A stretch of DNA of 64,000 nucleotides from Cyanophora paradoxa CCMP329 (GCA_004431415.1 QPMI01000521.1:1-64000); one strand, 5' to 3'; counted from the first letter of the stretch, positions 1-64,000 are shown. Notes: a model not told the origin generated them from the letters alone. Program-made: numbers and translations.

Positions 1-2
1 CA

Positions 3-193
3 GTCACAGGCGTCACAGTCAATTAAATAGGTGTCACACCCGATTATCTGACCATTTTCAGTAAGACCATCTGAAATTCTGAATTTCTCAGTGTCAACTA
101 ACTCGGAAATCGCAATACTCTATGTTTCTCCGATTTCTCCAACCCTGAAAACACACCTGTTATTCTCTCATCTATCTCATGAGATACTCTCGT
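3..193. repeat. Left terminal inverted repeat (visible part), reverse complement of 25365-25555
   Basis: 191-bp reverse-complement match read directly. It includes the last ~95 nt of the AdoMetDC gene. Confidence 0.9.
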
Positions 194-200
194 TTCGCCA

Positions 201-208
201 AAAATTGA
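201..208 (+). promoter_or_regulatory. AAAATTGA giant-virus-type early promoter motif
   Basis: CGCCAAAAATTGACAA just upstream of a small gene, nearly identical to CGCCAAAAAATGACAA at 6268. Confidence 0.5.
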
Positions 209-224
209 CAAACGATTTCCCATC

Positions 225-495: not shown

Positions 496-1399
496 CCAAG
501 AACTCAACTGGAATGAGTTGTCAATTCCATTCATATCTACAAGATCACCATAATAATCGCGAAACTCAACTGTTAACTCTCTAATCACCAAGGTTTCGAT
601 CGGTTATTTTTATGTATTCACTGTGCTCTCCACTGTGATAAACATACTGTCCAATATCTTTACTTAATTGCAATCTGAGAATCGCCCCTTGATTCTGTGG
701 TTGAGATTGGGACAATATTGTGGTTTGTAGCAAATGGGGAGAGTTCTTTAATGTGCATGTATAAATACTGTTCTGCATTCATATCTGTCATCTTGGCTGC
801 TTCTAACTTGTAGTTTAAGCGAGATGCCTCGAATTCATATCCTGTGAATGTTATTCCCATTGGGATGGTTTGGGGTGATTGGTATTCCTGCAAATAAAGG
901 AAATTCTCGGGGCATATAAAGACCTTGCAGACTCTGGGAAATCGTATCTGTTCAATGGAAGCACCCATCACAGAACTCACCCCAAGAAGTTTACCCAATC
1001 TCTGTGTAGATGCAACCATATCGAATTGAACATTACTGTAAAACTCCAATTTGTAGGAGGTAGGTTGTAGTAGACCTTGAATGCATATGTGAGATTGTTG
1101 CTCCCAGTAAATGTGAAATTCAGACCATAATTATATGGACTGGTGACCCCGAAATGACCTTGATTTATATAACCACTTGGGAGAAGGAAGACCTGTTTGG
1201 TTTCAGAGATGCCTTGGTAGTAGAATCTGACAAGAAGGTGGTCTGTTCCAATGGAGTTATAGATGCTGTTGGGGATCTCTGCATACAAAACTCGACATTC
1301 TCTTGGTTTGGTCACTGGGGTTGTGAGTGAAACTTTGTAGGAGTTTTCTATTTGTCCATCTGATCGGTCTCTGCTATCTATATTGACCAGCCGAATCAT
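479..1399 (-). pseudogene. Minor capsid protein/penton B (frameshifted)
   Basis: N-terminal IDSRDR...AEIPNS and C-terminal LTVEFRDYYGDLVDMNG, split over four ORF-track fragments. Homologous to 58616-59571. Confidence 0.75.
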
Positions 1400-1427: not shown

Positions 1428-2425
1428 ATGCCTGTGGATTACATCGAATGAGCCTTTCAATACAATTTCGGGAGATGGACCAACTTCGAGTTTTATTGCT
1501 CGCCTCCCCAGCACCTATGAATTTGTGAGAGCCAGTAAGACTGGTTTCAGCAGAATTCTATAACAGCATTCCCATGGTGAGTGGTGAAACCAAAGTAGGA
1601 GATGTGACAATAGATAATGCAATCTACCTTTATTGGTCTGAATATTATTCTGGTGCAGGAAGCACTGTATTCCAAACTGATCGACCTGCTGCCGATTATG
1701 AGCAATGGAAGCACATTGTGATAAGTCGCAGCACACCCATTCAAACCACCAACAACTGGTGAATGTAATTAACTCCAAACTTGCATGAGAGAGCCCAGTA
1801 GCAATTCGCTGTAAATGGGATGATACACTGAAACGAGTAATATTCCATTCCCACCATACCGTTTTACCTGGCTTTCTCAACTGCAATAAACCCAACCAGG
1901 CGCAGATTCAGAGGTTTTTGAGTTCTGCTCGACTGCTTGTCTTGATCCTGGGAGATATGGTAACACCCCAATCCAATCACAGTTTAAATACTCTGACTGA
2001 TGGTATCTTTACTGGGTCGATGGTGCATGGTATCATATCTTCATTTGAACCTGAAAAGACCAGGGATAGTGTTCTGTTTGTGAGAGTAAAGGAGTTGGGT
2101 GATCTGGTTCAATGTGGTGATGGTCTCCTCACTGGATATTTCCACAAAATCGTTGTTCAGATAAAGATTATGGTGAGCATGTCGTTTATAATTCGACAGA
2201 AGCCCATCGATTTATAAATACTATAACAAGAATCTGGACTTTCCACATTTTCGGTTGATATTGTGAATGCAGTTAATGAACCAATGATTTCGAGGGTCAA
2301 CCTGTCCACCTCACCTTCGAAATTCGATATGGTGATGAACCTGCTGGTGATCCTGTGTACGAATACTTTAAGAGGAGAATGCGGAAACACATCCATCTTA
2401 TCCAGTTATTGCGAATTTTGCGTAA
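1428..2425 (+). pseudogene. Minor capsid protein/penton A (heavily frameshifted)
   Basis: Fragments MPVDY, RLVSAE, YLYW, VRVKELGDLV...GYFHKI and IRYGDEP align with the intact 57632-58588 gene. Confidence 0.72.
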
Positions 2426-2479
2426 AATCAAGGATCATTGGTGAATTTTTTATGTTGCAGTATAATAAAAGAGATAATC

Positions 2480-3846
2480 ATGGATATTACTTCGACCCTC
2501 CAACGTCTTTCTCTGAAAGAAGCTCTAACAACCCCGGAGAAGCCAAGGCGTTCTTCTTGGACAACTCTCTCATGCTTGGTCTTGAATCCAAGTCGAAGCC
2601 AGTTCTTGTTGTTGTGAACCCAAGCAACACTTTCGAGAATAATGCTGGAAATCGCATTTCTTTCAAGCTCCCTCGCTACAATTCTGTGGAAAACTCGAAC
2701 TTGCGTTTGACCTTCCAGCTGTCACTTTGCTGGTGATACCGACCTTGTTCGCAATGGATACGTTCGCCCAGTTGGTGCTCTTGTCTCTCGACTTGAAATT
2801 ACCTATGGATCTTACACCTTCCATGTGCCTTCTGATTTCCTTGCTCATTTCCTCTTATCTATTACAGTGAGGATCAACTCGCAAGAAGAAGCGTTCAATG
2901 GAATGGTTCATGGTATCCTGCCCATGGAACCAACCGACTTGGTGGGTCATTTTTCACTGAAATCCCAGTCCCATGGCTAAACCACTACCTACCTCTTGGT
3001 GCTCTCTCAGGAGAAATGGTGGTAACTGTCTGGTTCAAGGATGCTGGAAAGGGTTATGTCGAGACTTCTTATGGTGGTCGTGCTCTTCCTGTTGTTGGTG
3101 GAACAGCTGCTGATAAGACAGAAGATGATGGACTTGGTGCTACTGCTAATGCTACTCTTGCCCATGTTGGTCAACAAATCACCACTTTTGGAATTGGTGC
3201 AACAACAACCCCCGAAATTAAAGTCACTTCTCCTCGTCTTTACATGCATGCTATTAATGTTTCTGATGAACTGTTTGCTACTGTCATTGAGAAGGTGAAG
3301 ACCACTGGTATGGCTATTCCTGCTCTGGATATTGGTTTTGTTGACAGTGTCAATTTTGCTGCAAAAGGCAATGCTCAACCAAATCGTATTAACCTGTCAC
3401 AGATCTCTGGTCTTGTCTATGGTCTTCTTGTTTCAGTTCGTGATGCCGCAGGTATTGATGGTTTCAATGGTTCCCACAGTGTCCTAAAAACGCATGCTAA
3501 CTCAAAAGACATTACTTTCACTGTTGAAATTAATGGTCAACGTCTCTATGCTACTGAGCCCATCCCTCTCCTCAAAGGTGCCGAATTAATTGCGGATGCC
3601 TTCAAGTGCTCAAATATGGACAAGGTTGCAGACAAATATGTCCTCAGTGGTCTACCATTCTGTGTTGATGGAGAGAAAGCGATTCGCAACATTGCCCAGT
3701 CTGGCTATGTTGATCTCACGAACTCCTCCTCTTCTTTCCTTACTCTATATATGCCTTCTGACCAGACAATCACAGTTAATGTTCGTGCTCTCATGCACAG
3801 TTTCATTATTGTTGACAAAGATGGTCTTCGTCGCATTAATCTGTAA
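2480..3846 (+). pseudogene. Major capsid protein (double jelly-roll, PLV-sized ~455 aa; 5' half frameshifted)
   Basis: Lies between penton and ATPase and is strongly similar to 56193-57580 (RINLSQISGL, ELIADxFKCSN, GLPFC, GLRxxNL). Several 1-nt deletions in 2530-2920. Confidence 0.78.
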
Positions 3847-3908: not shown

Positions 3909-4691
3909 ATGAACGATTTAGAAGAGTTTAATGCAGGCGAAATGATAACCCCACCATTTCGTGCTCTTTTCATAGGAAAGTCTGCAACAGGCAAGTCAGA
4001 ATGTGTGAAATATTGGTTGAAACAGCTGCATGATGCGAAAAAGATTGATACTGTTCTTGTTGTGAGTGGGACGTCCTTCAATCATTTCTGGGATGCAGTT
4101 GCAACATTGCAACTCGGGAAATGGGATGCTGCTTACATTTCCAAATTACTGGATGAAAGGCAGGAGAAAATCGAAAAAGGGGAACCTGTGAATCAAATGT
4201 GTATTGTCCTTGATGATTTAATAGATAATGAGTTAGTCGATTTAACTCGCGATAAAATTGTTGGCTCTGTTTTCAATCGCGGAAGACACTCGGCAGTATC
4301 CTGTATCTGCATAACTCAGAAATTGCGTAAGGTTTCTTCAACAATTCGAGTAAATTCGGATTATGCTGTGTTCCTGAGTGCTGCTAATCGCAAAGAGCTC
4401 GAAGCAATCGAGGAGGAATACAATATCATGCGAAACAAAGACGATTTCTATAAGATGTTTGAGGAGTATGTGCACTCTTACCAATATATTGTGTGGTCTT
4501 CTGCGAATTATTCGGTGAACTATTATGTTGATAAAGCGGATCTGGTTAAAGACTTTAAGTTTCCTCGGTTCCACAGGAAGCCCAAAAAGAAAGAGGACGA
4601 ATTACCACCTCCACAGAAAGAGGAAGCCCCCAAAGAGGTCAAGAGTGGTGTTCATTCGAATAAACTGATGCGATATAAGAGAGGTTTGTAA
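3909..4691 (+). CDS. A32-like genome packaging ATPase
   Basis: Walker A GKSATGKS, Walker B IVLDD, RGRH, ITQ...IRVNSDY. Confidence 0.92.
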   Translation: MNDLEEFNAGEMITPPFRALFIGKSATGKSECVKYWLKQLHDAKKIDTVLVVSGTSFNHFWDAVATLQLGKWDAAYISKLLDERQEKIEKGEPVNQMCIVLDDLIDNELVDLTRDKIVGSVFNRGRHSAVSCICITQKLRKVSSTIRVNSDYAVFLSAANRKELEAIEEEYNIMRNKDDFYKMFEEYVHSYQYIVWSSANYSVNYYVDKADLVKDFKFPRFHRKPKKKEDELPPPQKEEAPKEVKSGVHSNKLMRYKRGL

Positions 4692-4719: not shown

Positions 4720-5454
4720 ATGCCTTCCAAACGCAAAGTTGGTGTTCCTGCTGGTGCTATGTCATATTCTGCATCCTCTGGAACCGGTTCTATTAACACA
4801 GATCCCATGAAATTCAATGGTGTCAATGAAGTGAAAGCATCACAGCAACAGGAGGATCCCCTTAATGCTGCTTACGAAGAATCACCAGATGATAAAGCGC
4901 CCCAAGCATCCACCAGTGATCAACTCAATATTTCGCCCGAAACCTCTAAGATGAAGGCAGTTGGTGAAGGTGCTCGTCGAATTATTGGTGCTGCTGATGA
5001 TAAAGGACTGGGTCTGCAAGATCTCTCACTGGCTCGCAAAGGTGAAGGTGTCTCCAAAGAATCAGACAAGGTAATTCAATCCATGGCTGGTGAGGTCACC
5101 TACAAGGTCGCACCTACACAGAATATTCATCGAATTCCCAAAGCCCAATGGGACGAAATGACTGCGAAACTGAAAGATCTGGAAGCGAAATCGAGTGCTC
5201 TCGAACAGTATGTCTCTGAGAAGAAAGAGAGAGCGAAATTGAAGGAGATGCTGCGAAAGGAGGTGTACAGAATGGGAATCACTGGTCTCCCAGATAAGCA
5301 ATTCATTGGTAAGAAAGAAACTCAAATCGATGAGCAGGCAGTTGATGAGATGAAGACCAAAACCCAGAAGGGCACCATTGAACCTGGTGCTACCAAATCA
5401 GAGGTCGATAAAGGTGTTGCCCCAACAGTATATAAACGACGAGTATGGCTTTAA
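4720..5454 (+). CDS. Conserved coiled-coil protein next to the ATPase (putative core/virion protein)
   Basis: KAQWDEMTAKLKDLEAKS...ERAKLKEMLR matches the element 2 gene 54727-55364 in the same syntenic position. Confidence 0.65.
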   Translation: MPSKRKVGVPAGAMSYSASSGTGSINTDPMKFNGVNEVKASQQQEDPLNAAYEESPDDKAPQASTSDQLNISPETSKMKAVGEGARRIIGAADDKGLGLQDLSLARKGEGVSKESDKVIQSMAGEVTYKVAPTQNIHRIPKAQWDEMTAKLKDLEAKSSALEQYVSEKKERAKLKEMLRKEVYRMGITGLPDKQFIGKKETQIDEQAVDEMKTKTQKGTIEPGATKSEVDKGVAPTVYKRRVWL

Positions 5455-6143: not shown

Positions 6144-6271
6144 ACCGCCCCCAAAGTCCCAAATATCCGCTGAATCCTTTTTGTTACCATGATCAATCGA
6201 CGTTTCGATGGATCATTACCATATATCGAGCGCCAATCGGAAAACCCAAAGGTATTTAAAGGTTAGGCGCC

Positions 6272-6285
6272 AAAAAATGACAAGG
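6272..6285 (+). promoter_or_regulatory. AAAAAATGACAAGG early-promoter-like motif
   Basis: About 53 nt upstream of the primase-helicase ATG. Confidence 0.5.
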
Positions 6286-6337
6286 ATCCGGAGAAATTAA
6301 TTTCTCCATTAAGTATAAGAAGCCCCCGATTTTCGAA

Positions 6338-8699
6338 ATGAACGCTGCCGCCAAGAAATCCCTGAAACGCCTTGTTGACTGGCTTCGTGAAGACGATGTC
6401 CTGTCTGAGAATCTCGTAATTCCTGTTGATCCTGATACCAAAAAACCCTTTTCGCTCATAAAGACGGAGCCTGGAATTGGGATAAATTCGATGAAGCCCT
6501 GAAATCCGGTAAGTATACTGCTTGGGGCATTCTCGCTCGTAATATCATGGTAATTGACTTTGACCAAGAGGAGGATTTCGCCAAATTCGAGGAGCAATTC
6601 CCTGATGATTTCGGTGGTGTCAATCCTCTTGCTAAAACCAAAAAAGGATATCATGCATTCTTCGCTCGACCTGCTGAATTCGACACCATTAAGATCTGGG
6701 ATAAAGCGGGTGCATTCAAAGGAAACCCAAGATCGATTGCAAAACAATTGCATCCACTGGGACTGCTGGGGTAATTAATGTTTGTCCCAGTCCCAACAAA
6801 ACCTGGATCAGAGAGCCATGGGCATCTGAGTGTGAGTTAAATGAACCCACTGCTGAGTTGCAAAAGTGGATTGTTGACAACTACGAATTCCCCAAAGGTG
6901 CACATTCTTATATTGTGAGGAGCATTGAGGAGAATTTGCAGAAACACATTCTTTCTAAACTCGAAGAATTCGGTTTCATCTTGCCCACAATCATCAATGA
7001 GACCAAGATGGGATACAATTTCACTGCTGAGAACAAAGGTCTGATCTGTCCCTGCTGCAAGGGAAGCCATGACTCAAACAATTGGTATATTATTCAAGGG
7101 AAGGAGAAAGACAAGTACATTGTTTCGAGTTACAGTGCAAACTGCAAGAAGCGAAGCATCACTGTTCGTGTGAAGGAAGAGACAGATGTGAAGATCGAAA
7201 ATCTGATTGATCGGTCTGCTGGATCTGATGGTGCCCATTATGATGTTGCACAGGTTGCCTATCTTGTTCTGCAAGACAAATACAAGTATTCCAACAAGAC
7301 CTGGTTCAAGTTCAATGATATATGTGGGATTTGGGAGTTGGATGAAACTGGGAAGCGAATCTTTCTCTGTTTGAGCTGCAAGGTCTGTCCAGTTTATCTT
7401 CAACGTTCTGTTCAACTCGCACAGAGAGCTCTTCGTGATGAAGAGAACCGCAATTCCTTGGAGGAAAGGTGAAAGATTCTGCTGGGAATTGCTAAGAGCC
7501 TCAAACAGACTACATACAGAACTGCACTTATGTCTGATCTTTCAGTTCTGTTCAGTGACAAGACCTTTTTCGAGAGACTTGATACTGTTCCCAACATCAT
7601 AGGATTCACAAATGGTGTATTTGACTTGAACTCCATGACTTTTCGACAGGGACTCCCAGATGATATGGTGAGCAAGACTGTTGGCTACGATTATACCACA
7701 GAAATCGACCAAGAGAAGGTTGCAAAGATTAAGTCCATCTATGCAGATATTATTGAATCGGATACAGACCGCGAATTTATGTTGGGATTAATCGCCTATG
7801 CCCTGAGTGGTTTGACAGAAAATCAGAGATACACTTGTTGGACTGGAATTGGAGCAAATGGGAAATCTCTGCTCCAAGAGTTGGTGAAAGACACATTTGG
7901 TGAATACTATGGGTCACTGGATATGACCTATTGGACGAAACCCAAGAAGAGTTCATCAGAGGCTTCCCCAGAACTCGCTTGCATCCTTGGTAAACGAATT
8001 GTTTTCAGTAATGAAGCAGAAGATGGTGATATGCTTCAACTGAACAAAATCAAACAAGTTACTGGTGGGAATGAGATGAAGGTTCGAACTCTATTCAAAG
8101 ATCTTGTAACATTCATTCCCATGTTCCAGTTGTTCTTGTCTACAAATGACAATCTGGGAATCAGTAAACCAGATGCAGCAATCCAAAGGCGAATTATCTA
8201 CTACCGATTCGAAAATGTCTTCAAGGTGGAACCTCAACCTGGTGAGAAGAAGGCAGACACCACTCTCATGCGCCTCATGAAGAATGATGATGATTATAAA
8301 ATGGCGCATATGTCCATTCTCCTGGAAATGTGGAGAACCCATTCTCTCAATACATTCGTCACCAAACCTCCCCAGTCCATTGTTGATCAAGGTATGGAGT
8401 ATTTCAATGAGAATGACAAGATTGGAGAGTGGATTCGAGAGAATTATGAACTCACCAAGAGTCAAGGCGATTTCACTACAAGTGAGTCCATCATGAGTGA
8501 CTTCAAGAGAGACCACATGGGCAAATCTGATGAGAAAATCTCAGATTGCACCATTATGAAGAGACTTCGCGAAGTCTTTAATGTGAAGTCTGACAGAAAA
8601 CGAGTGAATGGTGTACTTTGCCGTGGTTACTTTGGGATCATAAAGAAGCATGGTCGCAGATTGATGGATGACAGTGATGAGGAGGTTGGGGATGAGTAA
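6338..8699 (+). pseudogene. AEP (Prim-Pol) primase fused to a Zn finger and D5-like SF3 helicase (2 frameshifts, 1 in-frame TGA)
   Basis: Primase motifs VIDFD, TKKGYH and KIDCK...GVINVCPS; CPCCKGSH; Walker A GIGANGKS, Walker B FSNE, motif C STN, AIQRRI. TGA at 7470-7472 is in frame with ORF 7530. Confidence 0.88.
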
Positions 8700-8764
8700 A
8701 TAAAACGGAATCAATACTTATACTGTGAATTTCTAATTTTTTAAAACCCTTACTGTAAATGGTT

Positions 8765-8910
8765 TGTGTGACAGGTGTGACAGGTATTTTAATTGACTGT
8801 GACGGGTGTGACAGGTGTGACAGGTGTTTTCAGGAGTCTGAGGATTTTTAAAAAGTTTAAAAAGTTTGAAAATAGGTGTCACACCTGTCACACCCGTCAC
8901 ACCCAATTAA
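8765..8910. repeat. Palindromic TGTGACAGG iteron array around an AT-rich core (origin-like)
   Basis: 9-bp repeats in opposing orientation flanking an A/T-run spacer, right after the helicase gene. Confidence 0.75.
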
Positions 8911-8997
8911 CCACAGACTCCCCCCTGTGGGTCGATCACTTTTCCGAAGAATAATCGAAGGATATCAAAACGTATCGGAAATCGGTGTGTTGTGACA

Positions 8998-9053: not shown

Positions 9054-9320
9054 ATGGATTATTTCGATGAAATTCGGCGGCAGCTTGTCGAAAAGAATGA
9101 TATTGCAGAGGTGGCGGATTATATTGCAAAGATCAAAGCAATTAACGGTAGACCCTATCAAAAGAAGCGTGTTTATGCAAGCAGACTCGACACAGTAAAT
9201 GTATATGTCCCAAAGGCACGAATGTGCGAATTATCAGAACCTGAAAAATGGGAAATGCGTTTAAAATGCCCAAAAATAATATGTTCCCTTAAAGTAAAAG
9301 ATGCCCCGCCAATCCAATAG
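9054..9320 (+). CDS. Hypothetical viral protein
   Basis: ORF downstream of the early motif, overlapping the pPolB start. Confidence 0.45.
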   Translation: MDYFDEIRRQLVEKNDIAEVADYIAKIKAINGRPYQKKRVYASRLDTVNVYVPKARMCELSEPEKWEMRLKCPKIICSLKVKDAPPIQ

Positions 9321-12300: not shown

Positions 12301-12581
12301 AGATTGTGGAGTATGTAGGTCTGAGATCGAAACTCTATGCTTTCAGAACTGAGACCTTTGATAAAATAAAAATGTCTGGGACTTCCTCCAAAGAGGTTCA
12401 CTTTGATGATTTCAAAAGATGCTTGTTTGAAGGAATCACCAAAACAGTAGCAGTAGTAAACAAGCGAAGACAAGACCACAACCTATATGATTTGGAGAGC
12501 AGAAGGGTGGCTCTAAACCAACTCGATAGCAAAAGGAAGATATTAGACGATGGAATTCACAGCATTCCATTTGGGCTCTAA
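9301..12581 (+). pseudogene. Protein-primed-type family B DNA polymerase with vOTU-like and endonuclease-VII-like Zn domains (frameshift ~10723, in-frame TAA 11280)
   Basis: DCFKYAI...GHY; CYIC...RDHCH...CRNCN; AIRGG, LDANNLYG, KLMNNAIYGK, HDTDS, GLRSKLY. Confidence 0.9.
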
Positions 12582-52419: not shown

Positions 52420-53518
52420 TCCAGAAATAGGGCTTCAGTCTGCCACACGTATTGCCAAGAAGTTGAAAATACCAGTTTCCAGGGTTAGAGAAGTGCTGGA
52501 GAAATTATCGACAGCGCAAAGATTTGCGAGGCCGCAAAAAGAGAAACCATTCACAAGTATAACATACGACAAAGCAGAGAAATACTACGAGGTGGACCTA
52601 ATCGACGTGACTCCGTACGCTAGAACAAACCGCGGTATTCACTTTATAATGAACGCAGTGGACGTAGTGACTCGGAAAGCCTACAGCATTCCAATGAAGA
52701 ACAAGAGCGAAAGTACACTCCTTTCAACACTACGGAAACTCATAGATAGTTTTCCAGCCAAGCCGGATATTATTCAGACAGATCAGGAGTTTAAAGCTTC
52801 AGCTGGTAGTTTGTTAGAAGCTGAGGGAATTAAGCACAATGCTGTGGAAGCGCATCGACCACAAGCAAACGGCAAAATAGAAAGATTTAATGGAACTTTG
52901 AAGCGAGTTATTGCACGGTATATGGAGGCATATGACACGGATAGGTACATCGACAAGCTGCCCGCTTTCTTGCGCAATTATAATTCGTCAGAGCATAGGT
53001 CGATTGGTACATCGCCAAACGCTGCAGCAGAGAATCCGAAGGAGACAATCGCGCGCAACGATTATCAGCGAGAGATCTACGAGCAGCAACACTACCTGAA
53101 GGAGGTCGAATTTAAAGTAGGAGACCTAGTTCGAGTTAAGCTAACCAGGAGAACCTTCGATAAATCGACAAAGCCAACCTTCTCGAAAGAAGTATTTCGA
53201 ATTGAGTCGATTGGGGGTTTTGGACCCCTTCTAAGATTTAAACTCGCTGGATCGGATACACCAGTGACCTACCAGCAACTTTTAAAGGTCCCAGTAGATT
53301 CAGAGGAACGTCGTGCGGGAAATGCAGCACAGCGGTCACAGCAGCGCAGAAAGAAGGAGCTAAATCTGATGCGAGAGAATTTAGATCGAGTGGACATAGA
53401 AAAAAATAAGAAGCTGCTTCGCCTTCAAAAGCAACTTGCGACAGCTGGAACTGTCAAGTTAAACCCTGGTGGAATATTAGAGAGAACAAAGACCAGAAGG
53501 CTAGTCAAAGAGCTATAA
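52382..53518 (+). CDS. Retroviral-like (rve) DDE integrase, intact
   Basis: YEVDL, IQTDQE, KIERFNGTLK, YNSSEHRSIG, FKVGDLVRV. Confidence 0.93.
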   Translation: MSTSAKIQEAYYDPEIGLQSATRIAKKLKIPVSRVREVLEKLSTAQRFARPQKEKPFTSITYDKAEKYYEVDLIDVTPYARTNRGIHFIMNAVDVVTRKAYSIPMKNKSESTLLSTLRKLIDSFPAKPDIIQTDQEFKASAGSLLEAEGIKHNAVEAHRPQANGKIERFNGTLKRVIARYMEAYDTDRYIDKLPAFLRNYNSSEHRSIGTSPNAAAENPKETIARNDYQREIYEQQHYLKEVEFKVGDLVRVKLTRRTFDKSTKPTFSKEVFRIESIGGFGPLLRFKLAGSDTPVTYQQLLKVPVDSEERRAGNAAQRSQQRRKKELNLMRENLDRVDIEKNKKLLRLQKQLATAGTVKLNPGGILERTKTRRLVKEL

Positions 53519-54203: not shown

Positions 54204-54779
54204 ATGGAGGTCACAATTCCAGAGGTTCCTGAAGATGTGGCTTTGATACCAATTACTGGACGTAGGAATGGCAGAAACGGAATTGTTGTCGCTTATGCAC
54301 TAGTTAGTCAGGATGATGCTCAACGTGTTCTTGGATTCCGCTGGAGTTTACATAATTCTGGATATGCTCGAACCATTATCAATCATAAGTGTGTGTTCTT
54401 GCATAACTTCATCAGCGGTGAGTTAGAGAACGGATTGACTGTCGATCATATAAATCTGAACAAGCTTGATAACCGCCGCGAGAATCTGCGTTTAGCAACA
54501 CAGCGGCAGCAGAATTTGAATCGTGGCCAGCAGCGCAATAACACATCAGGATTCATAGGTGTTACTTTCCATCAGCGAGATGGTAAATGGCAGGCGGAAT
54601 ATCGGATAAATGGTCGCAAAAAGCACATCGGATACTTTTCCACTGCTGAAGCTGCAGCAAGAGCCCGTGATGCTTACGTTCTAGAACATACTTCAGATGC
54701 AGATAAGCCGTTCTTGCGTCTGAATTTCACAGACGAATCCTTCTCCCACCCATCGCATTCTTCATCTGTGAGCTCGTAG
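54204..54779 (+). CDS. HNH-AP2 homing endonuclease
   Basis: VDHINLNKLDNRRENLR plus SGFIGV...KWQA...HIGYFSTAEAAARARD. Confidence 0.92.
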   Translation: MEVTIPEVPEDVALIPITGRRNGRNGIVVAYALVSQDDAQRVLGFRWSLHNSGYARTIINHKCVFLHNFISGELENGLTVDHINLNKLDNRRENLRLATQRQQNLNRGQQRNNTSGFIGVTFHQRDGKWQAEYRINGRKKHIGYFSTAEAAARARDAYVLEHTSDADKPFLRLNFTDESFSHPSHSSSVSS

Positions 54780-55364
54780 AATTTGGCTCTGAGACGTAAG
54801 GAGATGCAGTTTTAACCTCGGCAGAGTCAAGCGATTGCTCGGCTTTAGCTTTTTCGTTTTTCAGATAGCGTAAATCTGGTACATCCATAGGTCTGTGCTT
54901 AAACATTTCGCTTCGCAACATCTCGCGGATCTTAGCTCTTTCTTGCTTGTCTTTTACATACGATTCGATATTAGCCGACCTCGCTTCTAAATCTCGCAAT
55001 TTAGCCGCTAACTCGTCAAATTGTGACTTTGACACCGTTGCTGTCTTGATTTTAGGCCCTGAATACCGCGCTTCAGACGCCATCGCTTGTAAAATTCTAG
55101 CAGCATCATCATCGATATCAGACTGCATTTCGTTTACAATTTTGACCTGGCTCTGTCGGTCGTCAATCGCACTGGCATTAGCAGCAGCAGAGGCGATCGT
55201 TTTAGCAACGGGTGCATTAAGGCGGGGTCACTAGCTAATTCACCGCTAGGTTCAGCAACAGCTGCGCCCTCAGTTGAGCCGCTTTCAATCAGTGGAGTGT
55301 TCGGCTCAGATATATTAACCTTGCGACGTTCCCGATAGCCCTTCTTAGGAATCCCGCGACTCAT
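54727..55364 (-). pseudogene. Core-like coiled-coil protein (one frameshift ~55220)
   Basis: Two ORF fragments homologous to 4720-5454. Confidence 0.62.
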
Positions 55365-55373
55365 CTTATTTTC

Positions 55374-56114
55374 TTAAGATAAGATTTTAAAACGCCTCTT
55401 TTTAGAAACAACAGGCGATTCTTTCTTAGGCTCTTCTTCATTCTTAAGCCATTTTGTAAAACGAAAACTCTTATCTTCAACAGCTTTATCAACGTACCAG
55501 GCCGTATCGTACTTGGTCCCATCAAGGACTAGGCACTGATAATCGTGCGCCCAGGTTTCAAATAAAGCTATAAATTCTTCTTTTGGGAGATGGCTAAATT
55601 CTCTATAAATGGCCTCCAGCTCCGTGTGATTAGAGTAACTGAAGAAAAAACAATAGTCGGAGTTCGATCTTATAGATTGACTCAAAGCTGTTAGTTTTTG
55701 CGTCATTAGAATTGTACTTATATTAAAATGGCGACCCTGCGTAAAAAGTCGATTAACGGTCTTGCTATTTCGCAGATCAACAGTTTCAGAGGCAGCAACG
55801 AGATCATCCAATACAAGCAATATCTGCGGCGCTTTCTTTTTGTTTTCAATCAAATTTCGCTGTGAATCAATGATTTCTGCAACGATAGATGGCTGAAAAT
55901 CGTCATAAAGCTCATTCGGTATTGCAGAATACTCGCCGTTGAATTTGGTGGCGGTAAACACAACGACTCGGTTGATCTTTGGATACAGCAGTCGAAGCAG
56001 ATGCTTTGTGCAATAGAAGGATTTGCCGCTATTAGACTTTGAAATAAACAGGGCTTTGAATGGGACCCTCATATCGCTAGGCTGGAACTTTGCGAGCTCT
56101 TGAGACTCATCCAT
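55374..56114 (-). CDS. A32-like packaging ATPase
   Basis: SKSNSGKS, LVLDD, QGRH, MTQ...IRSNSDY. Confidence 0.92.
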   Translation of the reverse strand: MDESQELAKFQPSDMRVPFKALFISKSNSGKSFYCTKHLLRLLYPKINRVVVFTATKFNGEYSAIPNELYDDFQPSIVAEIIDSQRNLIENKKKAPQILLVLDDLVAASETVDLRNSKTVNRLFTQGRHFNISTILMTQKLTALSQSIRSNSDYCFFFSYSNHTELEAIYREFSHLPKEEFIALFETWAHDYQCLVLDGTKYDTAWYVDKAVEDKSFRFTKWLKNEEEPKKESPVVSKKRRFKILS

Positions 56115-56192: not shown

Positions 56193-57580
56193 CTAGAGAT
56201 TAACTTTCCGCAGTCCCGCAGCATCAACAATTAGGACAGTGTGAAGGAGAGCGCGAATTTGGACGTAAATCTTGTTGTTAGCATCATACGCAGCAGGGTT
56301 CATGATATTCAGGAAGCAGCTGCTGGAGTTCGTCAGATCTACGAAACCAGTTTGAGCAGCATTTCGAATCGATTTATCCCCACTAATGCAAAATGGCAAT
56401 CCAGTCAGAACATACCGATTAAGGGGTGCGTCGAGATTGGAGCACTTGAAGACATCAGCGATGAGTTCAGCACCTTGCAATAGAGGAACAGGCTCATTTG
56501 AATAAAGCCGCTGTCCATTCAATTCGCAGGAAATAGTAATATCGCGAGCATTAGCCTCGGTTTTGAGGACACTGTGTTTTCCATCAGTTTGGTTCATGTT
56601 TGGCTGCTTGCGAATGCTAACGAATAGGCCGTAACAAAGTCCACTGATTTGAGACAGATTAATTCGGGTGGGCGCACCAGCACCAGCATAAGTAATTGAA
56701 TCAGCATCAACCCAGCCGACATCGGTAGCGGGAATTGCGATTCCAGACGTTTTGACTTTCTCAATCACCTGGGCAAAAGTGGCCTCATCAACGTTGATGC
56801 AATGAGCAATAATCTTTGGATTCGAAAGCTCCGGATTGGCAGGGGTGACACTGAGAACATTGGGAGTTATATTCTGGCCGATGTTTGCAGGGGATGCAGC
56901 AGCAGCTCCCACGCTCCCAAGTCCATCTTCTTTAGAAGCATCACCGCCTATGGCATATTCTGTTACAAACCTACCACCATAGCTGGTTTCGACGAAGCCC
57001 TGGGCACGATCACGGAACCAAACCTCGACGGAAACCTCGCCAGATAGAGCACCAATCGGAAGCACAGAACCCTCCCAGGGACAGGGGATTTTTACACTGA
57101 AAATACCTCCAGTGCGATTGCTCCCCTGAGGTGGTGTTCCATGGAGCCAGCCACCGGATCGGTACTTCTTTTTAAGCTGAGCATCATCATTGTAAATCAG
57201 TGCGCTGTGAACAAGCCAGTCCTCGGGACAATGTAGCTGTAGGAAGCATATTTGATTTCGATTCGCTTTACGAGAGCACCAACCGATCGCAAATAACCAG
57301 TGCGAACCAGGTCAGTGTCACCAGTAAATGCTGTCAGCTCGGGAAGGGTAAACTGGAGTTCGAGTCCCTGAAGGAAATTGTATCGGGGCAGGAAATAAGT
57401 AACCCTCTTTCCGAAGCAGTCTCCATAGTCATTGCTTGGGTTGACAACAACACGAACAGGCTTGGTTTGGCTCGTTAGACCTAACATAAGCTCGTTGTTC
57501 ATGAAGAAGTCCTTCGCTTCCTGAGGTGTGGTGAGGAGCTCTTTGAGGCCGAGCCGCTGCAAATTCTGAGTAACATCCAT
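56193..57580 (-). CDS. Major capsid protein (single frameshift at ~57197)
   Basis: Joining TAH/LIYNDD... gives one ~460-aa protein collinear with the element 1 MCP. Confidence 0.8.
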
Positions 57581-57631: not shown

Positions 57632-58588
57632 TCAGTTTGACGAATTGATCCAAGGATATGTCTTTGACCTTTTCTGGAGCTGAAGTTTTGCAAGTTCGTA
57701 GACAACATCACCATTGGGTTCGTCAGGACCATAACGAATTTCGAGAATAAATGACACAGGAGCTCCATTTAAATCAGCGATTCGCTGCATAAAATCGTAT
57801 ATCTCAATAGTCACAGAGTAGAGGTCCAGCTTTGAATAAACATACTTATACAAAGGAGTTGCTTCAGTTGAATCGTAGTAGGCTGTCTCACCAGGACGGA
57901 GGGCGCTTGGAATGCTGAGCTTTGAGAAGAAGCCAGGAATTGAAGTATTTGGCATACTGACAAGGTCACCAATTTCAGGAATGCGAAGTAGCACATGATC
58001 ATCGGGAGTGACATCGGGTTCATAAGCGCCCTCTATATATTGAATATCGACAGTTAAATCCTTAGACCGAATCGGTAGAATTGATCGCAAGCCTAGCAGC
58101 TTTGCAGTTCGCTGAGCCCTTGCAACGGCCTGGTAGTTTCTGACTTCCCGCCCACCCTGGTTCGTTGGCAACATCAGAGCAATAAAGAACTCGAAGTTAG
58201 CTGTGAACCCTATTAATTTAACCGCTGAATTATACGTGCACGTGAGACCAGTCCCCGTCAACCTTTGGTTTATATTTGTCACAAGCGAGGTGACGTCGTA
58301 ATTTCCAGGTGGAATTGCAATGTTATTCCACGCTCCAAAACCTGGCTGAGGTGGGTCGGGTCCCTCATTTGCAGGATCATATTTGCACCAATATATATAG
58401 GTGTCAAACACTAAATCCTCTGCTGGATCGAGTGCATCAACTGTGCTCATTGTGTTGGGGATCTCAGCAGATACCAGGCGCACGGCTTTTACATCCTGAT
58501 AAACTTTAGGCAGTCTTACTTTAAATTTTGAGGTGGATGTCAGCTCATCCGCTTGGTGGCTTGCAATGCAGACGTAGTCCGTCGGCAT
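57632..58588 (-). CDS. Minor capsid protein/penton A
   Basis: FKVRLP...VKAVRLVSAEIPN...VTIEIYD...DLNGAPVSFILEI penton pattern. Confidence 0.8.
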   Translation of the reverse strand: MPTDYVCIASHQADELTSTSKFKVRLPKVYQDVKAVRLVSAEIPNTMSTVDALDPAEDLVFDTYIYWCKYDPANEGPDPPQPGFGAWNNIAIPPGNYDVTSLVTNINQRLTGTGLTCTYNSAVKLIGFTANFEFFIALMLPTNQGGREVRNYQAVARAQRTAKLLGLRSILPIRSKDLTVDIQYIEGAYEPDVTPDDHVLLRIPEIGDLVSMPNTSIPGFFSKLSIPSALRPGETAYYDSTEATPLYKYVYSKLDLYSVTIEIYDFMQRIADLNGAPVSFILEIRYGPDEPNGDVVYELAKLQLQKRSKTYPWINSSN

Positions 58589-58615
58589 CTTTTTTATATC
58601 AGTTAGAGAATAAAA

Positions 58616-59571
58616 ATGGTCGAAGACAAGCATCGACGCTGCGCCAGGCTCAGCTTTGACAGTAGAGACAGAAGGCCAATCGATTCAGAGGCAAACTTTG
58701 TGCTAGAAATAAATGAACCTATAATCAATCCAGTTGCTGTTCGACTTACCCAGTGTGAGTTCGCAAATAGCCTTTACACGAGCATTAAAGATGAGTATCT
58801 TTCGATCACCTTCCCAACATTTGGACGGAAAATCTGGCAGTTTTTGAGCCTGGTATAATTACTACTGCAAATATGGGCGAAACAGATCTTTACAACTTTG
58901 GCCTATCGTTTAAGTTTGAACTGGGGGGAATCGTAATAGCATATTTCAAATTGTTTCGGGACCCAGAGACACTGAAGATGTCTGCCTATTGCAACCGTTC
59001 CTGCACAGTGACCTGCCAGTTCAAAGCTCTATCGAATCTGCTAGGGCTGAACCGAAATGAGCCCCTCCAGCTGTCTCCTATCGTGATTGAAGGAGGGCAA
59101 AGATCAGTAACTGCAGCTGAGCGATATCTCGAGGTTGCTGGCATTCCAGTAACACCTTCACACCCTGAATATGGCGTGGATTTCACCGAAAGAATGCGGA
59201 GTGAGCCACTTGGTTATGCTGTCGAATTTCCAAAGATAATTGACATGAACAGCGACCAGTATCTCTTCCTAGTCTGTGAAGAGCTTCGACCATTTGCTTC
59301 AAAGCTTCGCCGTGGGGCCAAAACAATGTGCAACTACGGGCTTGCTCGAATTCAAATGAGTCAGGACGTTGGCAAATTCGTTTATATAAATCAGGATCAT
59401 CAAGGCGAATGGATCCCCATCGAAGAGCGTCTTGTGCTGACTTCCTTGCGACTGCGCATTGTAGACAGAGATGGTGATGATGTATTACTGAATGGATTGC
59501 CATGGTCTGGTGAACTGCAGTTCATTACTAGGGAAAGCCGAAGGCAAGAAGCCACTTGTGCTTCGCACTGA
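58616..59571 (+). CDS. Minor capsid protein/penton B (one frameshift ~58850)
   Basis: FDSRDR...VRLTQCEFAN...LRLRIVDRDG...LNGLPWSGELQF. Confidence 0.78.
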
Positions 59572-59631: not shown

Positions 59632-59964
59632 ATGTCGCAGTTGATGCCTTTAGCTCAGATTGAAAAGTACTTGCCGTTGATGCGGGACAAAAAAGTATCA
59701 CTTGTTGCGATTGGAGATAAGCCAAGCACACAAACAAACCTAGGTTTTCTGCAAGCTTACCGCCGATTCGGTCCTGACGGAATCAAAAAGGAGCTCGCAA
59801 CCAAAAACACAACTTGGTATCAGCGAAGAGAGAATTACATAAAGAGGCGACTGGGAGGGCGTAATGGAGCACCATTTTGGGAGAAAGATAAATCTGGCAG
59901 AACTATTCCAACACGTCTTGGACTCTCTCTGATTTCCTGGGCATTCATGCCGCCGCCTAATTAA
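59632..59964 (+). CDS. Conserved hypothetical viral protein
   Basis: VSxVA...GFLQAY...W..RR..YIKR...LSLISWAF pattern recalled from large DNA virus/PLV hypotheticals. Confidence 0.5.
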   Translation: MSQLMPLAQIEKYLPLMRDKKVSLVAIGDKPSTQTNLGFLQAYRRFGPDGIKKELATKNTTWYQRRENYIKRRLGGRNGAPFWEKDKSGRTIPTRLGLSLISWAFMPPPN

Positions 59965-61441
59965 TGTAACGTCCCCGGAAATCAAGCCGGAATGCATTCA
60001 CATTTATAAATTCGTTTGTTATAATTTGCACATAGTTATATACCTGTGGGGTGATCAAGTGCGAGTCACTATGCATTAGATCGAAGCCTGTCATAGATGG
60101 GTTTGCAGCAAGCACATTTGCTAGGACCGTGTTTTCAAATAGTGCCCCGTCTCGTAAATATCCTAAATTGGTCAGAATGCTGAAATTAAATAGAACTCCG
60201 GCGGCAAAGGCTGGCCCATACATAATTATTTGATGTAGCTCAAAAGGCTTTGGAAACTCGACTTTAATCCAGGGATTAGGTAAAGTGCCCCCTTGGAACC
60301 CTGTTGAGTTAGGTCGAACGTGAGAAGGTGGGTGCAATTCCTCAAAGTCGTTGCTTGTGATGTTTGCATCTGGAATTATAAACCAGTTGACATCAAATGG
60401 CGGCTCAACTGTTAAGGTAGACGATATGATAAGTCTCTCATCGTTCAGTATGTCGTAGTTCGCCAGTAGAAAGCTACAGAGTGCATTTATTTTGTTACTG
60501 ATTTCGGTTTGTTTCAGCCATAAATCAGTTGTGGAAATCAAATAAGAAATATTCGAAGGCGAGGCATCATCAAGCTTGCTCATGACTGCAGCTGGCAGCG
60601 GAACACTTAAACGCCAGTATCTAGTTAGATTCCTATCTGCATCAACTGGAAGCAGTTCCTGCATTTGAAAGTGCGATTCCAGCTCGCTACCAGCCATTAG
60701 CATAGAAATGATTGGGCTGCCTGAGAGGGATAGAATCCAGCCCAGAGCGCCCCAGCCTGACGTCTCCGCATTTGAAAAGCCTGCAGTCAATTGCTCACTG
60801 GCTTGGACCTCGCCACAGCTAATGCTCACAAGAACAATTGGATCCTCTGCATCATAAATTTTGCTGGCGTGGCTCAGTGCAGCAACTGAGGGATTATTCA
60901 AACAGGCAATGGCCCCGTCAACAAGGTTTTTGTCCCCTAGAACCTTCGGTGGAAAGAATGTAGGCGCTGCAGAAGATGCTCTCACTGCATCACGAATCAG
61001 CGTGCTTGAGTACGGCCCATCCTTTGTAAAGACTACGGGCTGCATCCGAACTGTATCAAACGCTGTAATTAATATGTCTTTTGTCGATTCTGCAATTGTG
61101 TAGTCCAGGGCAACGTCTGTGAGCACCGACTCTAGAGGGTTTGCATCATAACGGCTGCCTGAGAGCAAGCTTGTCAGTGATCTTGGATTTGCAAATATTG
61201 TTGGCAGGTTCGTTTGATATAGACTCAAGATATCACCTGCAGAATATCGGTAAGCGAGAACAGAGCCTGGAGTTGATGGGATAGCCAAACCGGCCGCTAT
61301 TATTGCCCCTGTCGAGGTGCCTGCAAAGAAATCAAACAGCTGTGGAATTGCTTTCCCAGTAAGCGCCTCGATCCGTTGCAGAATTCTGGCAATAATTATA
61401 CCACGAGCACCTCCACCTGATAACGAGAGAATGACCTTCAT
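59957..61441 (-). CDS. Patatin-like phospholipase with degenerate discoidin-like C-terminus
   Basis: LSGGGARG, GTSTG, ASSAAPTFF, DGA; WIKVEF...FRLDFRG tail. Confidence 0.9.
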   Translation of the reverse strand: MKVILSLSGGGARGIIIARILQRIEALTGKAIPQLFDFFAGTSTGAIIAAGLAIPSTPGSVLAYRYSAGDILSLYQTNLPTIFANPRSLTSLLSGSRYDANPLESVLTDVALDYTIAESTKDILITAFDTVRMQPVVFTKDGPYSSTLIRDAVRASSAAPTFFPPKVLGDKNLVDGAIACLNNPSVAALSHASKIYDAEDPIVLVSISCGEVQASEQLTAGFSNAETSGWGALGWILSLSGSPIISMLMAGSELESHFQMQELLPVDADRNLTRYWRLSVPLPAAVMSKLDDASPSNISYLISTTDLWLKQTEISNKINALCSFLLANYDILNDERLIISSTLTVEPPFDVNWFIIPDANITSNDFEELHPPSHVRPNSTGFQGGTLPNPWIKVEFPKPFELHQIIMYGPAFAAGVLFNFSILTNLGYLRDGALFENTVLANVLAANPSMTGFDLMHSDSHLITPQVYNYVQIITNEFINVNAFRLDFRGRYIN

Positions 61442-61556
61442 TTTTAAAAGGGGGCTTATATAAAAATGTCCTATATCTTGAAGAAGCCAGTGCCACTTCG
61501 TAAAGCTCCAGATCTCGTGGATGATCGACATATAAATATCCGTGTATTCGGGAGTA

Positions 61557-62075
61557 CTACTGCTGGAAATTCAGCTGCAGGAATTGCTTATCAGCCTCTA
61601 AAGTGTGCACAATAGCAAATGCATCACGAGCACGAGCAGCAGCCTCGGCTGTGTGGAAATAACCTATGTGCTTCTTTTTACCATCTACATTAAAATAAGC
61701 TCGCCATTTACTACTTGATCTATCAAAGTTGACTCCAATAAATCCTGATGAATTGTTAGATTGGCGGTATCGATTCAAAATTTGCTGGCGCCTAGATGCA
61801 ACTCGCAAATTTTCACGTCGATTGTCGAGGGGATTATGGTTGATGTGATCGACAGATAGGCCTTCTTCGATATTTGGAAAGAGAAACACTTGAAGTTTAA
61901 TTGTTGTATACTTCCCGTTTACTTTTATGTTAGCCTGAGCATAGCCATTATTATCCAAGTGCCATTTCTTCTGAAGAACTCGTTCGGTATCTTCGTGAGA
62001 CACAAGGGTATATGCACGAATGTTTCCTCGACGATCACGGAGTGGAACCGCCATTGCACCAACAGGAATGTCCAT
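61557..62075 (-). CDS. HNH-AP2 homing endonuclease (paralogue of 54204-54779)
   Basis: VDHINHNPLDNRRENLR plus AP2 domain. Confidence 0.92.
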   Translation of the reverse strand: MDIPVGAMAVPLRDRRGNIRAYTLVSHEDTERVLQKKWHLDNNGYAQANIKVNGKYTTIKLQVFLFPNIEEGLSVDHINHNPLDNRRENLRVASRRQQILNRYRQSNNSSGFIGVNFDRSSSKWRAYFNVDGKKKHIGYFHTAEAAARARDAFAIVHTLEADKQFLQLNFQQ

Positions 62076-62183
62076 TTCGATTCCAGCTTACTTAAGCTTG
62101 GCTTCTTTACAGTTAGAACCCGACATCTCTTTATAGCATATCAAAGTCTTGATCTGCATTCTTTTATCGAACCATCTACTATC

Positions 62184-64000
62184 ATGTCTTATCTCCTGAG
62201 AAAGCCTGTGCCTCTGCGACGGCCACCAGAATCGCCTGAAGAGGATAGGCTCATTAATATTCGCGTTTTCGGAAGCATTTTGGCTGACTACAATGCTGAC
62301 AAAGATATACACCAGACCGAGTTTAATCGCCCAGCTGCGTTAATTCTGCGCAACTCACATGTTGGCGCCCCGGACATTGCACAGAGATTTTGTCTAGGTC
62401 CAGCTGAGAACTATGTTGCTGAAATAATTGGATCCAGGGCGTTGCCGCGGCACCTGCGAATTGCCTCCTCAGGCACTGTTTCCAAGTATGATTCTGGTAG
62501 ATTAATCTTTAGGCTCCAAAATGATAGAGGGGTCCACACATCAGCTCTACGCCTAATTGATGAATCCAATGCTGTCACAAACAAGACTGCGGCTCACATT
62601 ACAGGGCGAATTCTCCTTGGCGAAGATGCAGGAATATCAGTGATAGCATCGCAAATCCAGCCGTTTCCCTGGGATTTACTATATACTGCTGCAAGAGAGA
62701 CAAATATTTTGTACGGTTTCGATGTTAATCAAATCGATACCGAGCCAGCCACCAGGTTAGATATTCCTGGATGCACCTTTGGCTCTATCCTGATTGAGGC
62801 TGACAGGCACCTGCTCCCGGCATTGCATGATAGATATGACCTAGGGCTTCGAACCAGGCAGTGGCGAAATATTCATGGAACAAGTATTTACCAAGACGGC
62901 AAAAAAGTAATCACTGAACCTGAGATAATAAACATTTTCAACTACTACTTTGGACCTATTGTCCCTATACCACCTATACCACCTCTTCCAGGGCTACCAA
63001 AGCCGCCAACGCCGGATGGACCAGGTCGAGAGCGAGTTGCCGATGAGACAATCCCATTTGGTCAAAATATTATATCATGGGAGGCTGTCAGGAATCGTCC
63101 AGTGATAGAACCCTATAAGCATCCACATGAGGAATACCTGCCGCCTGATATTGAAGTTTTCCCACTCGAAATGTACACAGAGCCGGAGGAGCAATTAATT
63201 CCCGACGGATTAGACGTTCAAGAACTCGAGTACGAGCAGCCTGTGATTCCGCATGAGCAGCTGCTTCCAGATGGCTTTGATCCTATTTTCTTCCCCTTGG
63301 AGTTCACAGTGGACTGGGAATCTATTAACTACAAACCTGAGAATTTTCCACCGGAAGATCACAGACATAACTGGGATGAAATCGATAATAAACCGTTGCA
63401 ATTTCCACCAGAAGATCATAGACACGACTGGGATGATATCGATAATAAACCGCTTAAATTTCCTCCAGAGGATCATAGACACGACTGGGGTGACCTTGAT
63501 AATGTTCCGCTTGAATTTCCACCGGAAGATCACAGACACATTTGGAGCGAAATAGATGAGCAGCCCGAGTTCGCAAAGATTGAGCTTCCTGTCACACTAG
63601 CTGTCTCTCTCTACAAATCAATTAACACCCCTGAAAGGTTATATTTGAATGACCACTATGTCCACAGGCAGGGAATTCGTGCTAACACTGACATGTCAGG
63701 CTCTTTGTTTATAAGGATTCCCCGTGGAATGGAGATAGTTGCTGCTGGCGGGAATATCGGTTTGCAGGACACGTTCCCAAGTATTTATGTCACAAACTAC
63801 TACGCCTCTGACATCGAAATGACATCTGTTCTACCTCCTTTGCCTTCACTGCCGTTAGATCCTCTCTCCCATGCTGATTTTCATTCTGCAATCCAGATTA
63901 ATGTAACAGATGTTAGCGATTTAGATTCATCGAGACCGAAATTGGTATTTAGCCGTGAACGCCTTTTACCCGAAGCTTTAATTGGAAACCGAGACGATTA
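62184..64000 (+). CDS. Giant fibre protein, truncated by the window end (absent from the ORF track)
   Basis: Hand translation: DSGRLIF, DLGLRTRQWRNIHG, ADETIPFGQ, FPPEDHRHDW repeats, SDLDSSRPKLVFSRERLLP, collinear with the 17111 gene. Confidence 0.8.
   Translation, partial: MSYLLRKPVPLRRPPESPEEDRLINIRVFGSILADYNADKDIHQTEFNRPAALILRNSHVGAPDIAQRFCLGPAENYVAEIIGSRALPRHLRIASSGTVSKYDSGRLIFRLQNDRGVHTSALRLIDESNAVTNKTAAHITGRILLGEDAGISVIASQIQPFPWDLLYTAARETNILYGFDVNQIDTEPATRLDIPGCTFGSILIEADRHLLPALHDRYDLGLRTRQWRNIHGTSIYQDGKKVITEPEIINIFNYYFGPIVPIPPIPPLPGLPKPPTPDGPGRERVADETIPFGQNIISWEAVRNRPVIEPYKHPHEEYLPPDIEVFPLEMYTEPEEQLIPDGLDVQELEYEQPVIPHEQLLPDGFDPIFFPLEFTVDWESINYKPENFPPEDHRHNWDEIDNKPLQFPPEDHRHDWDDIDNKPLKFPPEDHRHDWGDLDNVPLEFPPEDHRHIWSEIDEQPEFAKIELPVTLAVSLYKSINTPERLYLNDHYVHRQGIRANTDMSGSLFIRIPRGMEIVAAGGNIGLQDTFPSIYVTNYYASDIEMTSVLPPLPSLPLDPLSHADFHSAIQINVTDVSDLDSSRPKLVFSRERLLPEALIGNRDD

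Follow-up and report, generated by a model that had tools for sequence, protein, structure and literature searches.

A 64,000-nucleotide stretch of the glaucophyte Cyanophora paradoxa CCMP329 genome (GCA_004431415.1, QPMI01000521.1:1-64000; hereafter the window) carries two integrated Polinton-like viruses (PLVs), termed element 1 and element 2, that belong to multicopy families and build on one capsid family, and whose DNA polymerase gene has very probably been replaced at least once since their common ancestor. Their packaging ATPases are sisters, whereas a sister relationship of their protein-primed DNA polymerases B (pPolBs) is rejected.

The elements correspond to two low-GC blocks (1-26700, 36-44% GC per kb; ~48000-64000, 43-49% per kb) on either side of a stretch of 53-78% GC. 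Element 1 (1-26719; 40% GC) has inverted terminal repeats and, because its right repeat region reaches 26719 and a hairpin meets a GC step there, is taken to be ~28 kb long with its left tip outside the window; element 2 (~47700-64000+; 45% GC) follows at a spacing of 21 kb and is cut by the window end. The gene order of element 1 is penton B, penton A, major capsid protein (MCP), ATPase, 'core', archaeo-eukaryotic primase (AEP)–superfamily 3 (SF3) helicase, pPolB, rve integrase, patatin-discoidin, fibre, four spike paralogues and an S-adenosylmethionine decarboxylase (AdoMetDC)-like gene; that of element 2 is pPolB, rve, HNH, 'core', ATPase, MCP, penton A, penton B, patatin, HNH and fibre. 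Forty-five open reading frames (ORFs) of the window were scanned with Pfam (E<=0.05), and element 2 was compared with element 1 by tblastn.

Virion genes of the two elements

Protein comparison bore out the claim of an earlier sequence-only reading that the window holds two related elements with virion genes in corresponding order and an rve integrase in each (26-63% identity). The MCPs are 49% identical over 379 aa (E 9e-113), the 'core' proteins 39%, the ATPases 36%, the patatins 36-46%, the fibres 42-63%, and the pieces of penton A and penton B 31-35% and 26-39%, respectively; for rve the value is 28% and for pPolB 20% (E 3e-6). DNA similarity is confined to ten short patches. The single virion module proposed in that reading holds for internal order, as pentonB<->pentonA-MCP-ATPase-core and patatin<->fibre are kept inside their blocks in both elements, but the blocks are arranged differently: compared with element 1, the capsid block of element 2 is inverted relative to pPolB-rve and patatin-fibre, in element 2 patatin and fibre are separated by an HNH-AP2 gene, and the modules are related at family level, not near-identical. 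Likewise, a fibre is present in both elements, but that of element 1 (~1100 codons) is long rather than giant, as it had been called, and 'core', though it has a counterpart in each, is a label only, with no family match. The virion genes are as follows.

584..1399, minus strand: element 1 penton B (minor capsid protein), frameshifted pieces; penton-like profile E 5e-4 and 0.045
1430..2390, plus strand: element 1 penton A, frameshifted pieces
2430..3846, plus strand: element 1 MCP
3909..4691, plus strand: element 1 A32-like packaging ATPase; PF04665 E 7.5e-12
4720..5454, plus strand: element 1 'core', conserved protein without Pfam match
15521..17061, minus strand: element 1 patatin phospholipase fused to an F5/8 type C (discoidin) domain, frameshifted; PF01734 E 4.5e-13, PF00754 E 1.5e-7
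17111..20447, plus strand: element 1 fibre, phage tail repeats plus C-terminal H-type lectin, three pieces; PF12789 E 4.5e-6, PF09458
20467..24574, plus strand: element 1, four paralogous predicted spike proteins with a common N-terminal domain, 34-44% identical to one another, two with C1q heads; PF00386 E 4e-6
54727..55227, minus strand: element 2 'core' protein
55374..56114, minus strand: element 2 A32-like packaging ATPase; PF04665 E 4e-10
56193..57580, minus strand: element 2 MCP
57632..58633, minus strand: element 2 penton A; penton-like profile E 1e-8
58616..59571, plus strand: element 2 penton B, one frameshift; profile E 0.019; Atlas neighbour with the Sputnik V18/19 minor capsid family (0.92, low recognition)
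59957..61531, minus strand: element 2 patatin phospholipase with C-terminal extension; PF01734 E 9e-26
62184..64000, plus strand: element 2 fibre, truncated where the window stops; 41-42% identical to its element 1 counterpart across ~540 aa

The penton profile was seeded from an ORF with a DUF5901 hit and comprised 14 penton-like ORF rows from viral loci. Penton A and penton B show no direct BLAST similarity to one another, and a single-sequence fold model of penton A (predicted local distance difference test score, pLDDT, 38) was uninformative. The four spike paralogues keep the same N-terminal domain while their heads differ, which suggests an exchangeable receptor-binding set.

Probable polymerase replacement and its alternatives

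The genes for replication and integration are the following.

6200..8699, plus strand: element 1 pieces of an AEP primase-polymerase and SF3 helicase, likely one D5-like fusion; PF08706 E 2e-8, PF19263 E 2e-7; Prim-Pol E 0.14, below cut-off, motifs present
9301..12581, plus strand: element 1 pPolB with EndoVII-type zinc finger (PF02945, E 6e-4), without PF03175 and 'Beta'/group 1-like, its reading frame interrupted by a frameshift and an in-frame stop codon
12899..14014, plus strand: element 1 rve (DDE) integrase; PF00665 E 1.4e-3; its D, D and E residues line up with those of the element 2 integrase
49093..52419, plus strand: element 2 pPolB, PF03175 type ('Alpha'-like; E 7e-59), intact, 1108 aa; relatives 25-36% identical
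52358..53518, plus strand: element 2 rve (DDE) integrase; PF13683 E 3e-8, PF00665 E 4e-7

For the element 1 pPolB, 3412 proteins were retrieved at E<=1e-30, many of which carry PF02945 and come from long contigs; that of element 2 retrieved 136 proteins, nearly all with PF03175. Under the class definition in the available text of Starrett 2021, by which PF03175 denotes Alpha, the element 2 enzyme is Alpha-like and the element 1 enzyme Beta-like (PMC8502044). Among the matches listed, each polymerase scores its own 120 relatives at a median of 306 bits (element 1) or 224 bits (element 2), compared with 36-42 bits against the opposite relative set and 43 bits against the opposite element's pPolB. 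In a tree of 64 rows (31 of the 120 listed matches per set, taken from the top and by even spread with P0122 omitted, plus the window sequences), the window sequences stand on opposite sides of a branch with 100 support, and constraining them to be sisters costs 286 log units (approximately unbiased (AU) test, p=1e-40).

The ATPases, by comparison, are sisters with 100/99 support in a tree of 26 rows that includes Polinton-type and virophage-type loci and was collected from 99 IMG/VR loci. Module exchange is supported because the ATPases are sisters whereas pPolB sisterhood, the outcome that the sequence-only reading had set against its own proposal of swappable replicases, is rejected; the exchange reading is right, and the exchange works like that of other mosaic polisuviruses. 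The gene content on which the proposal was built was also recovered: element 1 has an SF3 helicase and an EndoVII-type pPolB, with a weak Prim-Pol match, and element 2 has a very different pPolB and no helicase in its visible part (Pfam, 45 ORFs). Among IMG/VR loci with related pPolBs, 0 of 80 and 0 of 19 carry this MCP, these pentons, patatin or fibre (E<=1e-3). A Sputnik-type MCP occurs in one of nine scanned loci with an element 2-type pPolB, and the 13 scanned loci with an element 1-type pPolB include three with PF21738 and one with a Sputnik-type MCP. Three IMG/VR contigs of 30-40 kb (L007, L009 and L010) encode pPolBs of 1750-1890 aa; L009 also encodes an MCP of virophage type and a YqaJ recombinase domain, and L010 a subtilase.

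Several points weigh against the view that the polymerase was replaced within integrated viruses sharing one capsid family. Similarity to each query guided the choice of pPolB references, a sampling that favours a split, and both window rows are long branches; the gap is large despite the choice of sets and the long branches. A tree of 15 rve rows leaves the relationship of the two integrases without resolution and does not reject their sisterhood (p-AU 0.37). No near outgroup that pairs this capsid with a known replicase was recovered, and the swap may have run in either direction and more than once; element 2 is cut by the window end, and a helicase or protease may lie in the missing part. 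The capsid fold model has a mean pLDDT of just 55, and MCP sequence similarity reaches no named PLV group, hence there is no MCP tree against such groups. Finally, virions, excision and dependence on a giant virus are putative here.

In both elements pPolB and rve adjoin, pPolB lying directly before a single rve. Together with the coupling of pPolB to DDE integrases that has been published for polisuviruses in general (Barth, Ha and Aylward 2026; 10.64898/2026.10.13.758929), this adjacency suggests that rve may have moved with pPolB. Related virions would now package genomes copied by unrelated pPolBs, each virus presumably integrating with its own rve integrase. Cultured PLVs are usually reactivated by a giant virus. 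On reactivation, pPolB would copy the linear genome starting at its ends and the ATPase would then package it, with fibre, lectin heads and patatin probably serving attachment and membrane entry. The pPolB may move as a pPolB-rve cassette, which could be exchanged when elements residing in the same genome recombine or could arrive as an inserted transpoviron-like unit.

It is conceivable, if improbable, that the virion block was instead the mobile part and that two unrelated transpoviron-like pPolB-rve replicons each captured a related capsid and fibre set. The available text of Starrett 2021 interprets Alpha/Beta mosaics as transfer of the virion module (PMC8502044), and both the inversion of the capsid block relative to pPolB-rve and fibre and the lack of a terminal sequence common to elements 1 and 2 in the window speak for such capture; yet two separate blocks, capsid and patatin-fibre, are common to both elements and make up most of each genome, and sisterhood of the integrases stands unrejected. 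Differential loss from an ancestor with two or three replicases, without any exchange, is very improbable: although element 1 itself carries two replicases and dual-replicase genomes have been published (Barth 2026), it requires an ancestor with two distant pPolBs plus AEP-SF3, and it has to contend with a pPolB placed directly before a single rve in both elements.

Read data bear on the state of the copies. Twenty of the 24 runs listed hold 73-76% of the sampled words of element 2, all from one organism. None of these is an RNA run; two presumed RNA runs yielded four contigs apiece and carry no weight here. In run X1, flank contigs listed have depths of 94 and 117, compared with 741-1015 for the pPolB-rve side of element 2, 2051-2589 for its penton-patatin side and only 190 for its second HNH gene; in run X7 the values are 15-23, 132-244, 497 and 42, respectively. 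Element 1 reaches 2152-3499 (X1) and 562-803 (X7) among the contigs listed. Contig depth, at ~7-35x flank for the elements, does not equal copy number, but the ratios recur across runs, and both elements are multicopy families in one organism. The virion genes of element 2 are two to three times deeper than its polymerase, which fits the presence of other replicases on the same virion module; counting against this, the fibre end is also shallow (236 in X7), and plain divergence past the 95% cut-off could mimic the gap.

The notion that the elements are dead relics or noisy-assembly chimeras is barely credible, for although element 1 has many frameshifts and element 2 two, and none of the contigs listed spans either element, 30 of 30 bins of each stretch are covered in all three DNA-type runs, the breaks are single-base differences in deep contigs (all 12 indel rows inspected, out of 59, in element 1 and the rows at both breaks of element 2), an intact 456-aa MCP relative, P0001, exists, and the terminal repeats are 100% identical over 191 nt. 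Because deep short-read contigs differ by single bases there, the frameshifts are likely consensus or assembly errors, or else confined to this copy; decay of the whole family is the less likely cause. An alternative genetic code behind the broken frames was rejected, most breaks being frameshifts.

A more far-reaching version of the replacement reading can be offered only tentatively and is rather doubtful: that these elements represent an unnamed deep lineage of glaucophyte DNA viruses, with a capsid like that of nucleocytoplasmic large DNA viruses (NCLDVs) and lacking a maturation protease, whose members go on exchanging replicases in one culturable host, the hairpin-ended AEP-SF3 replicon of element 1 having taken up a pPolB-rve cassette bracketed by repeats and most near-identical copies of the element 2 virion module carrying another replicase.

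An isolated capsid family and its known relatives

The MCPs belong to a very isolated, unnamed capsid lineage that has already been catalogued. A word search over 5.8 billion proteins returned a single MCP relative (60%), the Cyanophora paradoxa protein P0001 in EukProt, which is 59-61% identical to the window MCPs (60% for element 2; 59% for element 1, where the alignment covers the C-terminal part). A full HMMER search over 1.84 billion representatives gave six matches, five of them real, the sixth (P0243, E 8e-12) being dropped as a repeat-protein artefact; P0242 is 38-40% identical to the MCP and an environmental group 25-28%. The family was found in 0 of 11, 0 of 37 and 0 of 25 candidate stretches in IMG/VR scans and in 0 of 156 and 0 of 139 in JGI metagenome scans, and a PDB sequence search gave nothing under E 0.3. 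A fold check, as the sequence-only reading had advised, placed the protein among double jelly-roll (DJR) capsids: by Foldseek, the P0001 model (mean pLDDT 55) matches the PBCV-1 MCP (E 2.5e-15, probability 1.0, TM ~0.5), the iridovirus MCP and other DJR capsids. By its Atlas features, the MCP lies closest to clusters that have NCLDV capsid domains in 12-18% of their members (0.98, low recognition), but fold libraries are rich in NCLDV capsids, and the NCLDV ranking is weak evidence of affinity.

In the available parts of Bellas 2023 (PMC10120064), P0001 is printed in Table S2 as a confirmed MCP (HHpred 98.5%), and Table S4 gives 366 MCP hits for the C. paradoxa genome, 272 and 94 in two unnamed 'new' clusters, 20 and 28; Cyanophora appears there only under these clusters and not under Mavpol, GKS1 or any named group. 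For Aquintoviricetes (PgVV, TsV, Dino and related PLVs), where the expected trait is an MCP in a named PLV cluster, this absence from Table S4 is the relevant observation. With 59-61% identity to P0001, the window MCPs exceed the >=25% identity for a Bellas 2023 Cyanophora cluster (20 or 28), and another Table S2 MCP looks by eye closely related to that of element 1. Starrett 2021 notes Cyanophora contigs (PMC8502044). The suggestion of an undescribed group thus stands in part: no name, dedicated description, genome account or replicase comparison of this capsid family was found in the literature, with most subscription journals uncovered, and the available text of a 2026 framework mentions neither Cyanophora nor glaucophytes (10.64898/2026.06.19.733378), but the MCP is catalogued (Tables S2 and S4) and some accessory genes have been mentioned, namely discoidin in PLVs of Glaucocystophyceae, on its own or joined to patatin, and a C. 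paradoxa PLV fibre with PTR-PTR-H_lectin architecture (Bulzu 2025; PMC12220804).

Both elements show the traits of PLVs in the broad sense (polisuviruses), i.e. a DJR MCP, a penton and an A32-like ATPase (PF04665 in both), and element 1 adds a genome of 15-40 kb with terminal inverted repeats. Resemblance to Polintons and adintoviruses (Polintoviricetes, which also take in Gosseviruses, with Polintons as defined in PMC11161782) extends to pPolB, rve, the A32 ATPase, the DJR MCP, the penton and the terminal inverted repeats, and mosaics of Alpha and Beta PolB on one virion module have been reported (PMC8502044). Unlike Polintons, the elements have two pentons, a patatin-discoidin in place of PLA2, and AEP-SF3 beside pPolB. 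No Ulp1/adenain maturation protease was found among the 45 ORFs, and no motif match in a real ORF, across near-complete element 1 and the visible part of element 2. P0001 has no Pfam match at E<=5, compared with PF21738 at E<1e-40 in three Polinton-type loci, and no match to the virophage MCP families PF21915/PF22031, which do match the IMG/VR loci L009 and L082. On MCP and protease, the elements fall outside both Polintons and virophages. Zoravirus, Zephyrvirus, Alpenseevirus and Mriyavirus are similar in size (20-30 kb), in carrying rve in some groups and in having a lipase (10.64898/2026.06.19.733378), and the NCLDV-type nearest features and folds of the window MCP provide a further, weak likeness; unlike that group, the elements gave no Pfam match to HUH endonuclease, VLTF2 or VLTF3 among the 45 ORFs, where remote homologues could be missed, and no MCP relative in the IMG/VR scans.

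A PLV capsid with Polinton-type integration, put forward as a surprising mix, did not stand as such, for rve is the main integrase of several PLV clusters, and incongruence of pPolB and MCP has been described alongside (Bulzu 2025; PMC12220804). Barth 2026 is among the closest published cases: it reports that replicases move between capsid types, that elements in tandem can combine homologous virion modules with differing replicases, and that there are genomes with two replicases or with a second replicase bracketed by repeats; one contig in its figures shares an assembly prefix with Cyanophora records (10.64898/2026.10.13.758929). Its pairs swap PolA for AEP at 70-100% DNA identity, whereas here distant pPolBs sit on virion modules 26-63% identical in protein. 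The novelty is therefore limited, the capsid family being catalogued, rve-bearing PLVs common, and replicase swaps and dual-replicase genomes published: the polymerase swap confirms a published pattern and gives a clear example in a catalogued, unnamed capsid family. Its value lies in a test case within one host, likely a cultured glaucophyte, with tens of related virus copies and at least three replicase types, in which one accurate assembly could map exchange points, direction and the proposed 'autonomous replication cassette'. Beyond this, the isolated capsid family could mark a lineage absent from the current classification, and an inducible copy would yield a virus of a glaucophyte alga.

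Element ends, repeats and mobile pieces

Further features, mostly non-coding, are listed here.

3..193, no strand: element 1 left terminal inverted repeat, inner part (the remainder precedes the window); 191 nt, 100% complementary to 25365-25555
8749..8920, no strand: element 1, further copy of the terminal TGTGACA repeat block inside the element, after the helicase and before pPolB; 78-91% to 25493-25933; five of 13 pattern matches, 0 expected by chance
14558..15064, no strand: element 1, an 11-bp and a 32-bp repeat array, both short, downstream of the integrase
25059..25460, plus strand: element 1 AdoMetDC-like gene, running into the terminal repeat; PF02675 E 6e-11
25365..26719, no strand: element 1 right terminal repeat region, the last 97 nt of which (26623-26719) form an imperfect hairpin (-39 kcal/mol, z -11.5, 0 of 200 shuffles)
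47700..49092, no strand: element 2 non-coding left end, exact terminus approximate; contigs that look single-copy reach no further than 47710, and loose ends lie at 48081
54204..54779, plus strand: element 2 HNH-AP2 endonuclease 1; PF13392, PF00847
61557..62075, minus strand: element 2 HNH-AP2 endonuclease 2, few copies; PF13392; 52% to the first; X1 contig depth far below that of its neighbours

The window contains 13 occurrences of a 16-base repeat against 0 expected, eight of them in the right terminal region and five at 8767-8901, directly past the helicase; this repeat may serve the AEP-SF3 enzyme and the hairpin ends as a binding site or origin. On one side of pPolB-rve in element 1 lies this terminal-type repeat and on the other lie the two arrays at 14558-15064, which are unrelated to it, and we infer a bracketed cassette. 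Element 1 would then be an intermediate, in which a hairpin-ended AEP-SF3 replicon and a repeat-bracketed pPolB-rve block share one genome. Just past the hairpin, GC climbs from 0.31 to 0.65. By eye, the hairpin's translation agrees with the opening 29 residues of a Table S2 gene model (PMC10120064) which reads on into an MCP of another family; this gene model appears to be an independent junction at the same element 1 end. A narrow literature search gave no paper combining hairpin termini, AEP, SF3 helicase and pPolB in polintons, and the word 'hairpin' is absent from the available text of Barth 2026 (10.64898/2026.10.13.758929). GC by codon position does not separate the modules. The AdoMetDC-like gene resides in a virus of 28 kb.

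In element 2, contigs in two of four runs join 58647 to 54166, hinting that HNH-AP2 genes move between sites. Loose contig ends at 48972, 57629 and 62626 have a common short motif, which suggests insertion of a small mobile element at these positions in other copies. Before element 2, positions 47686-48080 form a repeated stretch beginning TG, and upstream of 48081 other copies read on differently; the left end of the element may be interrupted there. In the GC-rich middle of the window, none of the 18 longest ORFs has a Pfam match and no tRNA was found. Nested long inverted repeats (up to 439 nt, 99%) at 33307-41250, likewise without Pfam match, are either a large inverted duplication or an assembly fold-back.

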